From positions 10,605 through 74,604 of the forward strand of contig JABDDA010000002.1 in assembly GCA_013287845.1 (NCBI GenBank): a DNA stretch of 64,000 bases, written 5' to 3'. Shown piece after piece: positions 37,501 to 40,500 of the stretch. The number at the start of each line of letters is the position of its first letter. Position 1 is the stretch's first letter. This DNA comes from Gammaproteobacteria bacterium. GTDB taxonomy: Bacteria; Pseudomonadota; Gammaproteobacteria; DSM-16500. Made by a program: the position numbers.

Positions 37501-40500
37501 CACATGCTTGTCCAATGACAATGGGGCCTGCTCCAATAATTAAAATATTTTTAATATCATTTCTTTTAGGCATAACTTTTCTCTATCATGGATTTAAATT
37601 GTTTAAACAATAGGGTTAATTCAATGGGGCCCGGTCCTGCTTCAGGATGTCCTTGAAAACCAAACGCAGGTGTATCTGTTCTTTCTATTCCTGCAATTGT
37701 GCTATCAAAAAGAGATCGATGTGTGACATTCAAACACGAAGGTAAATTTTCTTCTGAAACAACAAATCCATGATTTTGACTGCTGATAGAAACCACACAT
37801 GTATTCATATCTTGAATAGGATGATTTGCACCGTGATGTCCAAAAATCATTTTTTGTGTTTGCGCACCACTTGCAAGTGCGAGTAATTGATGTCCCAAAC
37901 AAATTGCCATCATTGGAATTTTATAAATTAATAATTTTTTAATGGCATCGATTGCATATGTACACGCTGCAGGGTCACCTGGCCCATTTGATAAAACAAT
38001 TCCATTCGGTTTTAATGAAACAATTTCTTCTACTGAAGTCATGGCAGGCACAATGGTGACAGCACAATTTAATTTAGAAAGACAATTTAAAATGCTTCGC
38101 TTCACACCAAAATCGTAAACAACAATATGATGTTTATTTTTTTGTTGTCCCCATGAATAGGATTTTTTTGTTGTGACTTCTTGCACTAAATCTTTTCCTA
38201 ATAATCCTGAATAATTTTTTGCATATTGATGTGCTTTTTCATAATCAATATTTCCTGTCATGATGCAACCCGATTGACTGCCAAATTGACGCAAATGATG
38301 CGTTAATGCACGTGTATCAATTTCACTGAGTGCAATGAATTTTTGTTCTTTTAAAAAATTTTGTAATGTATTTTCTGCTCGCCAATTACTTGCGATCGTT
38401 GAAATGTTTCTCATGATGGCTCCTTTCGCAAAAATGCGATCGGATTCCATATCGAATGAATTCACACCGACATTACCAATATGAGGTTGTGTGAAAACAA
38501 TTAATTGTTCGGTATAAGAAGGATCTGTTAATACTTCTTGATAGCCTGTTTGAGCTGTATTGAAAACCACTTCACCAGAAACATGTCCTGCGTGACCTAC
38601 ACTGACTCCTTCAAAGAAGGCTCCATCGGATAAAACTAAAATACCTGGGTTATTCATTTTTCGCGCCTTTTCTCGGTTGTATATTTATACGTTTATGTGT
38701 ATTATTATACATAATGAAATAAATGTAAAGAGCGAGGTGTTTACGATGAAGTTCAGTTCAGCCACAACAAAGCTATCACTCACTGAAAACCTTCAAGTGG
38801 AAAAATTTTCTGATGTAAAAACAGGTGATGTGATTTTAGCTGAAGTATTAAGCCAAAATTCAGCTTATCCTTATCTTGAACAAACAGATGGGGAATTATC
38901 TCGATTAGAAATTGGAGACAAAATTATTGGCGTCATTGGAGCAAGACAAGCATTGCGTGGTTTTGTCGGTTATTCACCTAAAAGAATAAATAATCAAAAT
39001 CCACTTTCATTATTAAATATGGGCGGCGTGATTGGTTGTCATGTGGATTCTGCAGTGGGATTAGGAGAACCCGCGAAAGTGAAATATCTTGGAACGGTGG
39101 TTGATCATCACGGCATTGTAAATATGAATCGCTCTACTCTACCGAATACCTCTTCTATCTTAAAAACACGTCAAATTATTTTAATTTTAGGAACCTGTAT
39201 GAATGTCGGAAAAACATCGAATGCAGAAAAAATAATTTTTTCAGCAACACAAGCAGGATTCAAAGTAGGTGCTGCAAAAATAGCAGGTGTTGCTGCAATA
39301 AAAGATTTGAACTGTTTTAAAAATGCAGGCGCAATTGATGTGAAAAGTTTTTTAGATTGCGGCTTACCTTCAACAGTCGATGCAGAAGATCTCGCTCAAG
39401 TTGTAAAAAATATTATTAACGCATTGAACGGTGATTTACTTGTCATTGAGTTAGGCGATGGAATCATGGGGCATTATAAAATTGAGAGTGTTCTAACAGA
39501 TCAAGAAATTATTTCACATGTCACTTCCATCGTCGTTTGTGCAGCAGACCTTGCTGCTGCCTATGGCGCTAAAAAATATTTAGAAGAATTTAAAATTAAA
39601 ATTAATGTGTTCAGTGGTCCTGCAACAGATAATATTTCAGGATCGCATTACATTGAAGAAAAATGGGGAATCCCCGCAATTAATAGCGTTAAATTTCCCA
39701 ATCAACTTTTCAAATTATTACATGCAAGGAGTGCAACATGATTCCATGCGCGATTGTGGGCGGATCAGGCTATATCGGCGGAGAACTCATTCGACTTTTA
39801 TTATCACATCCTAAAATTAATTTAGTCGCTGTTACAGCTAATGAAATGGCAGGTTTTCCGATATCAAAATCACATCCTAACTTAAGTCATGTGGATATGA
39901 ATTTTAATACGTTAGAAAATATTCATCCTGCCGAAGTTATTTTTTCTGCACTTCCTCATGGAAAATTAATGGAAGTGATTCATTCATTTTCTGGAAAAAC
40001 TATTATTGATACTTCAGCTGATTTTCGTCTTCAAAACCAATCTGAATTTGAAAAATTTTATAAAACATCTCACTGCGCATTTGAAAAAACAAAATTATTT
40101 TCATATGGATTGCCCGAATTATTTCGATCCACAATAAAAACCGCAAAAAATATTGCAGCACCAGGTTGTTTTGCAACTGCAGCAATTCTTTCTATTTTTC
40201 CCATTGTCGCTGAACAGCTAAATAAAGAAATTATCATCAATGCCGTCACAGGATCCTCAGGTTCTGGAATAAAACCTAAAGATAAAACAAATCATTCTTT
40301 TCGCGCAGATAGTTTTTATGCGTATGAATTATTTAATCACCGTCATGTTCCAGAAATAAAACAAGCACTGCTTCATAAAACAGGGCATGATATTGATCTT
40401 ACTTTTCAACCGCATTCTGGGCCTTTTGTTCGCGGCATTTATGCAACATCAATTATTAAATTAAATAAAAAAATTACCCGATCAGAATTATTAAACATTT

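Follow-up and report, generated by a model that had tools for sequence, protein, structure and literature searches.

A two-domain P-loop protein encoded ahead of argC as a proposed N-acyl-L-glutamate synthase in a Legionellales-type arginine cluster

A 64,000-nucleotide stretch of a Gammaproteobacteria bacterium genome (GTDB lineage DSM-16500; GCA_013287845.1, contig JABDDA010000002.1, positions 10,605 to 74,604 of the forward strand), called the window throughout, carries an arginine cluster in which the first gene of the argC operon, here called X, encodes a 331-residue two-domain protein with a P-loop. Judged from operon context, conserved residues and a structural model, X probably performs the first step of arginine biosynthesis, the synthesis of N-acyl-L-glutamate, by one chemistry or another. 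By analogy with a related fold it is tentatively proposed to be an acyl-CoA-dependent N-acyl-L-glutamate synthase, with succinyl-CoA as the probable donor. N-acetylglutamate synthase catalyses a classic reaction, for which many genomes of prototrophs still have a 'missing' enzyme. The predicted role is not new, having been put forward for a Steroidobacter protein in the GapMind 2026 preprint (bioRxiv 10.1101/2024.10.14.618325); the Legionellales member analysed here adds an undescribed variant of the pathway.

Gene X and the arginine cluster

X starts at an ATG at 38746, with a GAGG ribosome site 8 nt upstream, and stops at a TGA at 39739-39741. The stop overlaps the argC start (ATG, 39738-39740) in an ATGA at 39738-39741. 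A longer version starting at a TTG at 38677 was unsupported, all 27 aligned homologues (27/27) starting at an MKFSS-type N-terminus. Within X-argC-argB-argD-argR every junction was an overlap or a gap of at most 16 nt, and a terminator-like hairpin on the opposite strand follows argR (43242-43272).

The original prediction, made from the window sequence, had described an unassigned first cistron coupled to argC in a cluster holding ArgB, ArgC, ArgD, a fused ornithine carbamoyltransferase (OTC), ArgG, ArgH, CarAB and ArgR and lacking ArgA, ArgJ and ArgE. All of this was recovered: the ATGA overlap is present, neither Pfam (best E 0.08) nor NCBIfam nor PDB sequences yielded a match for X, the named genes were found, and Pfam scans of 40 further window open reading frames (ORFs) gave no member of the GNAT/ArgA, ArgJ, M20 (ArgE-type) or AstE families. 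Four small ORFs lay outside that scan (8691-9302, 14421-14855, 29016-29396 and 63203-63844).

A route through a LysW carrier and ArgX was rejected. The operon is gap-free, without a small carrier ORF, and its ArgB is ordinary, scoring 222 bits with the TIGR00761 argB model, well above the LysW-kinase models (127 bits).

Distribution and operon linkage

Homologues of X formed more than 3,700 clusters at 90% identity, essentially all unnamed, and an exhaustive profile search (E <= 1e-3) gave 1,657 clusters at 50% identity. Named members were from Acidobacteriota (Blastocatellia, Pyrinomonadaceae, Chloracidobacterium), Planctomycetota, Chloroflexia, Gemmatimonadota, 'Deltaproteobacteria' and Candidatus Peribacteria. 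The window belongs to an uncultured Legionellales bacterium.

Linkage was assessed in 41 loci from a motif-based scan of GTDB species representatives (Blastocatellia, Planctomycetota, Chloroflexia, Peribacteria), in which ORFs were assigned by comparison (BLASTP) with the Arg proteins of the window. All 41 were arginine operons holding argR, argG, argH, argC, argD, argF' and argB, most commonly in the order argR-argG-argH-X-argC-argD-argF'-argB. The original prediction had staked its proposal on homologues being linked to arg genes in other genomes; X was immediately 5' of argC in all but two loci (39/41), one a contig end and the other a Chloroflexia locus in which argF' comes after X.

A Pfam scan of 109 same-strand ORFs without assignment, from within or beside these operons, gave no recurrent ArgJ or GNAT gene. 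An M20 ArgE/DapE-like gene was located within four marine Planctomycetota-type X operons, and a gene of the AstE/AspA (succinylglutamate desuccinylase/aspartoacylase) family within two Peribacteria X operons; most X-bearing operons were without an M20 gene. In the operons that carry a dedicated deacylase beside X, the first step is thus the sole arginine step lacking a gene. A deacylase role for X itself was rejected on the grounds of its P-loop fold and its co-occurrence with M20 and AstE-type deacylases.

The two AstE/AspA-family genes of Candidatus Peribacteria encode 290 residues and stand between argB and argH in complete arg operons (L035:14089-14961 and L041:14095-14964). They are candidates for a non-M20 N-succinyl-citrulline desuccinylase. 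That Peribacteria, members of the candidate phyla radiation (CPR), have a full arginine operon is itself notable.

Comparison with the Steroidobacter prediction

The preprint describes Steroidobacter denitrificans ACG33_RS14135 (UniProt A0A127FCT3) as a hypothetical protein without family assignment (10.1101/2024.10.14.618325, Appendix 2). For its homologues the setting is 'virtually always' an arginine operon with argB, C, D, F', G, H and R, and in the preprint's set they never occur alongside ArgA homologues; some of the operons carry an argE candidate, and Steroidobacter is without a recognisable ArgE (10.1101/2024.10.14.618325). Position 92 of the neighbouring ArgF' is A, P, S or V (rarely I, T or Q) and not Glu, and the predicted structure of ACG33_RS14135 matches 7XRJ weakly, with a root-mean-square deviation (RMSD) of 5.6 Å (10.1101/2024.10.14.618325). 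From the position-92 signature, the operon context and the 7XRJ match the authors predicted an N-succinylglutamate synthase, as a prediction only (10.1101/2024.10.14.618325).

Relatives of X reproduced the operon context, the weak 7XRJ match (5.1 Å vs 5.6 Å) and the non-Glu92 ArgF'. The ArgF' (N-acylornithine carbamoyltransferase) neighbours scored above the NF003384 cut-off, and position 92, located with the help of the E92S and E92A mutant structures, was T in 13, P in 8, S in 5, Q in 4 and A in 2, with Glu in 0 of 32. The Steroidobacter locus was not among the GTDB loci from the motif scan; X and ACG33_RS14135 very probably belong to the same family, as judged from the preprint's description. 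The window clade differs in pairing X with a canonical OTC, a wiring not described in the preprint.

Structure, fold and conserved residues

An AlphaFold2 model of X, built with a 28-sequence alignment, had two domains (predicted local distance difference test, pLDDT, 93.5; predicted template modelling score, pTM, 0.91). Foldseek against the PDB ranked DgcN first (7XRJ; E 4.2e-6, template modelling (TM) score 0.40, RMSD 5.1 Å, 14% identity, 227 aligned columns), in line with the relation to DgcN drawn in the original prediction, and placed the second DUF1611 structure, 2OBN, at rank 28. The N-domain alone found no Foldseek match in the PDB, 7XRJ and 2OBN included (best E 0.47). Profile-to-PDB searches, the broadest with a 36-sequence alignment that included paralogues, retrieved FtsY, MobB and BioD. 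Aligned by hhalign with E. coli BioD (sequence checked against PDB 1A82; E 7.5e-4), GTCMNVGKT of X was paired with GTDTEVGKT, K178 with K37 and E235 with E115, tentatively, the hhalign probability being 25%.

Both motifs quoted in the original prediction, ILILGTCMNVGKT (residues 145-157) and LLVIELGDGIMGHY (residues 231-244), are present in X. Its assignment of a BioD/DUF1611-type P-loop held for the motif resemblance and the BioD-type Walker A, but not for membership of PF07755/PF17396 or for the N-domain fold. Membership of DUF1611 was rejected, since X had no hit to PF07755 or PF17396 even at E <= 10 and has a different N-domain fold; the N-domain of DUF1611 is Rossmann-like. Distant X members and plasmid paralogues reached 16-21 bits against PF07755 (cut-off 25) over about 40 residues around the Walker A, and a precomputed PF07755 flag of unspecified strength is attached to some homologues from Pyrinomonadaceae. 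X was also without a BioD family-level match (PF13500, NCBIfam BioD), in an arginine and not a biotin context and with an N-domain of 138 residues that BioD lacks, and without a GNAT or ArgJ (PF01960) domain in Pfam and NCBIfam. On sequence grounds it is assigned to a distinct, unnamed superfamily lying between BioD and DUF1611 in sequence space.

Residues invariant in arg-linked members and paralogues alike were G27, G65, R67, G75, G93, G94, G97, G149, G155, K156, T157, K178, G181, D187, G195, A196, F202, G206 and E235. The N-domain thus contributes R67 and a G93-G94-x-x-G97 loop that are invariant across the superfamily. R71, in an RQALRGFVGY motif, was invariant in the arg-operon alignments (A1 and A2) and replaced in the plasmid paralogues. 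This pattern points to a predicted active site built from both domains.

Fusions and paralogues

A 626-residue protein (P0185; L044:8001-9881, also L045 and L046) consists of an X-family protein fused to an ArgB/ArgA-type amino-acid-kinase domain. Four metagenome contigs carry it in identical form, divergent from an arginase-family gene and outside any arg operon. By analogy, the fusion mirrors the kinase-plus-synthase pairing of ArgA and of NAGS/K (N-acetylglutamate synthase and kinase in one enzyme). The non-canonical first step proposed for X in the original prediction has gained support from linkage to arg operons across phyla, the completeness of these operons for arg genes other than argA/argJ, deacylases in some of them, the X::ArgB-like fusion, DgcN as top fold neighbour and the same prediction in the preprint.

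In a second fusion of 740 residues (P0295; L047:226-2448) an M20 hydrolase is joined to a divergent X-like protein with Walker A GTSMSAGKT and with EAGAS in place of ELGDG. It carries less weight, as it was found once, on a contig without neighbouring arg genes. Apart from fragments, single-sequence and profile searches with the N-domain for other architectures yielded three fusions and two types of plasmid paralogue.

The plasmid paralogues were obtained with tblastn and are full-length two-domain relatives of X outside arginine operons. One, on Priestia megaterium plasmid NZ_CP085446 (88630-89691; L055:7974-9035; hhalign E 6e-30), is surrounded by an OTC-like gene, two ATP-grasp ligases, a split decarboxylase dependent on thiamine pyrophosphate (TPP), an M20 peptidase, an LLM oxidoreductase and a gene of the phosphoenolpyruvate (PEP) mutase family, in a putative phosphonate/peptide biosynthetic cluster. 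That this paralogue is again beside OTC-like and M20 genes supports the role proposed for X. Paralogues on Rhodobacterales plasmids (L054:5896-6993, Sulfitobacter; L056:5905-6957, Paracoccus; hhalign E 2e-22) adjoin ABC exporter genes. They are labelled 'DUF1611 domain-containing protein' or 'dethiobiotin synthase' in RefSeq and matched Pfam only below threshold around the Walker A; judged by sequence, these names look like over-annotation.

Proposed reaction

X would N-acylate L-glutamate, yielding the N-acyl-L-glutamate for ArgB, ArgC and ArgD encoded immediately downstream, and would replace GNAT-type ArgA and ArgJ. The C-terminal BioD/DgcN-like P-loop domain is predicted to bind a phosphate-bearing co-substrate through K156/T157, K178, D187 and E235, and the all-beta N-domain (R67, R71 and the GGVIG loop) to close over this co-substrate and to position glutamate. 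Transfer would be acyl-CoA-dependent, as in DgcN, with succinyl-CoA rather than acetyl-CoA as the predicted donor. Gene structure, operon linkage, fold class and conserved residues were observed; the reaction, its donor and the parts played by single residues are predictions from them. Protective N-acylations (ArgA, DapD, AstA) usually draw on CoA thioesters, and DgcN reportedly uses acetyl-CoA. The acyl-CoA version is favoured because DgcN, the sole characterised glutamate-acylating enzyme of the fold class, has been described as an acetyltransferase (D-glutamate N-acetyltransferase, 7XRJ; Yu et al. 2023, as cited in 10.1101/2024.10.14.618325). Succinyl is favoured over acetyl, by extrapolation, because the ArgF' beside relatives of X lacks Glu92. 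The acylation of glutamate foreseen in the original prediction is retained here, but its acyl group is probably not acetyl in most lineages, the neighbouring ArgF' never having Glu92; its 'acetyl-recycling' alternative found no positive support.

X and DgcN are alike in their BioD-like P-loop domain and, for X as proposed, in acting on the amino group of glutamate. DgcN is catabolic and D-Glu-specific, whereas X would be biosynthetic and act on L-Glu. ArgA, or short N-acetylglutamate synthase (GNAT), and ArgJ resemble X in the proposed product and in operon position with argB and argC, and ArgA also in the fusion of X to an ArgB-like kinase domain in one lineage; their folds are unrelated to that of X, and the likeness is one of analogy, not homology.

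Several observations weigh against acyl-CoA-dependent synthesis by X. The DgcN match is weak, and Francisella BioD (3OF5; 4.4e-6), HypB and SRP/FtsY are statistically indistinguishable from it in Foldseek. The all-beta N-domain of X is unlike that of DgcN, and profile searches against the PDB never reached the DUF1611 chains (7XRJ, 2OBN, 2G0T). The K178/E235 pattern is like that of ATP-using BioD, which favours the ATP-dependent ligase discussed below. Only 64 kb of the genome is in view, and a canonical argJ or argA could sit elsewhere. In the window clade, moreover, the pathway is incomplete even with X assigned, with a canonical OTC and no deacylase in view.

If confirmed, the X family would be a third, structurally unrelated solution to the first step after GNAT-type ArgA and ArgJ. 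Confirmation would close a recurrent gap in metabolic reconstruction and auxotrophy prediction, mostly for uncultured lineages, and would give a function to a two-domain protein whose N-domain resembles no solved structure. The mechanism of X would also settle whether CoA thioesters or ATP are used in amine acylation by BioD-like P-loops.

Alternative explanations

The best-surviving alternative, which we regard as possible but rather unlikely, is that X works as a BioD/CobQ-type amide ligase dependent on ATP. A free acid would be converted to an acyl phosphate and attacked by the amine of glutamate, giving N-acyl-Glu, ADP and Pi without a CoA thioester. Members of the clade of BioD, CobQ, CTP synthase and PurA typically phosphorylate an oxygen and then form a C-N bond, and BioD itself (PF13500; 1DTS, 3OF5) forms its C-N bond after phosphoryl transfer. 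X and BioD have exactly the same Walker A spacing, GxxxxxGKT, and K156, T157, K178, D187 and E235 are invariant superfamily-wide, non-arg paralogues included, with K178 and E235 paired to K37 and E115 of BioD in the hhalign alignment. BioD ties with DgcN in Foldseek and outranks the DUF1611 structures in profile searches; the M20::X-like fusion and the position of the Priestia paralogue amid ATP-grasp ligases and M20 were counted on the same side. Against this, the BioD alignment reached only the low hhalign probability given above, acyl-CoA is the usual donor and is said to be used by DgcN, and the M20 fusion is one contig in a non-arg context with a divergent member. Coupled to a deacylase, to which it is fused in one lineage, such a ligase might run an acyl-recycling loop paid for by ATP, in which the freed acid is re-attached to glutamate and ArgJ is functionally replaced; we give this loop about the same modest chance as the ligase itself. 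If true, ATP-driven recycling would be a new solution to the first and fifth arginine steps, distinct from ArgA, ArgJ and LysW/ArgX.

It is improbable that X is a non-catalytic accessory NTPase, be it one that regulates arginine enzymes, one that serves in assembly or as a scaffold, or a metallochaperone of SIMIBI/G3E-like type that acts on an M20 deacylase. HypB, MobB, Cfd1 and SRP/FtsY-type NTPases are among its fold and profile matches and an M20::X-like fusion exists, but the X sequence is without an NKxD guanine-specificity motif or a Cys/His metal-binding motif and the majority of X operons lack an M20 gene. An accessory role would moreover leave the first step unfilled in all X operons. 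In the N-domain of X the conserved Arg residues and the glycine loop resemble a small-molecule site, and the partner in the best-supported fusion (P0185) is a kinase that would use the product of X.

Least probable, by a small step, is an ArgJ-like transacylase, with N-acyl-ornithine (or N-acyl-citrulline) as acyl donor and glutamate as acceptor, which would serve the first step and the deacylation step at once: the Legionellales clade needs free ornithine and shows no deacylase or ArgJ gene in the scanned window ORFs or, up to 10 kb away, in three relatives, and Steroidobacter is likewise without a recognisable ArgE according to the preprint, but nucleotide-independent transacylation by a P-loop protein with invariant Walker A Lys and Thr lacks precedent, a cyclic transacylase needs a priming synthase anyway, dedicated deacylases stand alongside X in six operons, and a deacylase may be encoded elsewhere, with moonlighting by DapE conceivable as a speculation.

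The Legionellales variant

Synthesis of N-acyl-L-glutamate by X, the favoured role, has to be fitted in the window clade to a canonical OTC. The OTC domain of the window scored 338 bits with NF001986 (cut-off 306) and 306 bits with TIGR00658 (cut-off 281), compared with 150 bits for the ArgF' model (cut-off 288). With its DVWTSMG motif it is canonical, and the clade is without the non-Glu92 feature of ArgF'. The canonical OTC means that an N-acyl-ornithine deacylase is required. No ArgE, ArgJ, M20 or AstE gene was found in the scanned window ORFs or, within 10 kb, in three relatives (L043, L052 and L053). These relatives, 62-75% identical, carry X-argC-argB(-argD) together with a canonical OTC, free-standing or CarB-fused.

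The CarB::OTC protein of the window is an in-frame fusion of 1352 residues, 56-69% identical to equally long proteins of a 'Legionellales bacterium', Legionella massiliensis and Tatlockia, and such fusions occur widely among Legionellales (Legionella massiliensis, Tatlockia and metagenome-assembled genomes). In cultured Legionella the argG-argH-carA-carB::OTC block is beside argR and an amino-acid ABC transporter, without X-argCBD. Outside the clade the closest relatives are from Acidobacteriota (62% for X, 53-61% for ArgC). A recent horizontal gain of X-argCBDR was unsupported, GC being uniform (0.33-0.36) across 26-48 kb. The simplest reading is an old graft, in which a module from glutamate to N-acylornithine was joined to a Legionella-type module from ornithine to arginine (carA-carB::OTC-argG-argH). 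The apparent graft in the window points to a further N-acyl-ornithine deacylase.

Control region

The divergent control region between carA and X is 88 nt long, and from it ArgR may repress the whole regulon, that is X-argCBDR and the divergent carA-carB::OTC-argG-argH. Two candidate ARG boxes at 38678-38691 and 38698-38711, of 13-14 nt each, are spaced 20 nt start to start. They are the sole exact matches to their pattern in the window, which is weak evidence since the pattern was derived from them; with two mismatches allowed, the pattern occurred at chance level across the window. The candidate ARG boxes of the original prediction are accordingly kept as two exact palindromes, with no statistical support beyond these two copies, and are plausible as putative ArgR operators. 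Promoter and terminator scans gave chance-level results.

Table 1. Positions in the window of gene X, its parts and the genes of the arginine cluster
Feature	Position	Strand	Basis
Gene X, 331 aa, two-domain, proposed N-acyl-L-glutamate synthase (ArgA substitute)	38746..39741	+	ORF, homologues, model, linkage
X N-terminal all-beta domain, residues 1-138	38746..39159	+	Model of the domain alone, pLDDT 90.8; alignments
X C-terminal BioD/SIMIBI-type P-loop domain, residues 139-331	39160..39738	+	Foldseek, profile vs PDB, hhalign
Walker A GTCMNVGKT (G149-T157), BioD spacing GxxxxxGKT	39190..39216	+	Sequence; aligned to BioD GTDTEVGKT; G149, G155, K156, T157 invariant
Invariant K178, aligned to BioD K37	39277..39279	+	hhalign, probability only 25%; correspondence tentative
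ELGDG (E235-G239), Walker-B-like strand end, E235 aligned to BioD E115	39448..39462	+	Alignments, hhalign
Two ARG-box-like palindromes (TGTATATTTATACG and TGTATTATTATACA)	38678..38711	.	Direct and inverted repeats
argC	39738..40742	+	TIGR01850, 353 bits vs cut-off 234
argB (N-acylglutamate kinase)	40753..41559	+	TIGR00761, 222 bits vs cut-off 151
argD (acetyl/succinyl-ornithine family transaminase)	41552..42748	+	TIGR00707, 484 bits vs cut-off 410
argR (arginine repressor)	42765..43217	+	Identified, but not above a curated NCBIfam cut-off
carA, divergent from X	37566..38657	-	Window ORF assignment
carB fused at its C-terminus to canonical OTC	33515..37573	-	NCBIfam scores; motifs SLRTR, HPCQ, DVWTSMG, HCLP
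argG	32326..33522	-	NF001770, 594 bits
argH	30881..32329	-	TIGR00838, 576 bits

Other features of the window

Three genes for AbiEii nucleotidyltransferase toxins with adjacent partner ORFs were located at 12533-14243, 14941-16451 and 45239-46943; the partner at 46095-46943 had an AbiEi Pfam hit, and the other two partners were without a Pfam hit. Of two copies of a YhcG/DUF1016 PDDEXK nuclease gene, the one at 56901-58082 is intact. The other (27765-28841) is split into DUF1016_N (28221-28841) and YhcG_C (27765-28202) and is probably a frameshifted pseudogene. Two further loci had no evident link to the arg cluster, namely a stand-alone, PapA-like condensation-domain protein of 431 aa (19101-20396, + strand) and, at 54317-56870 on the - strand, an AMP-binding enzyme of the acetyl-CoA-synthetase type followed by a class-I glutamine amidotransferase.

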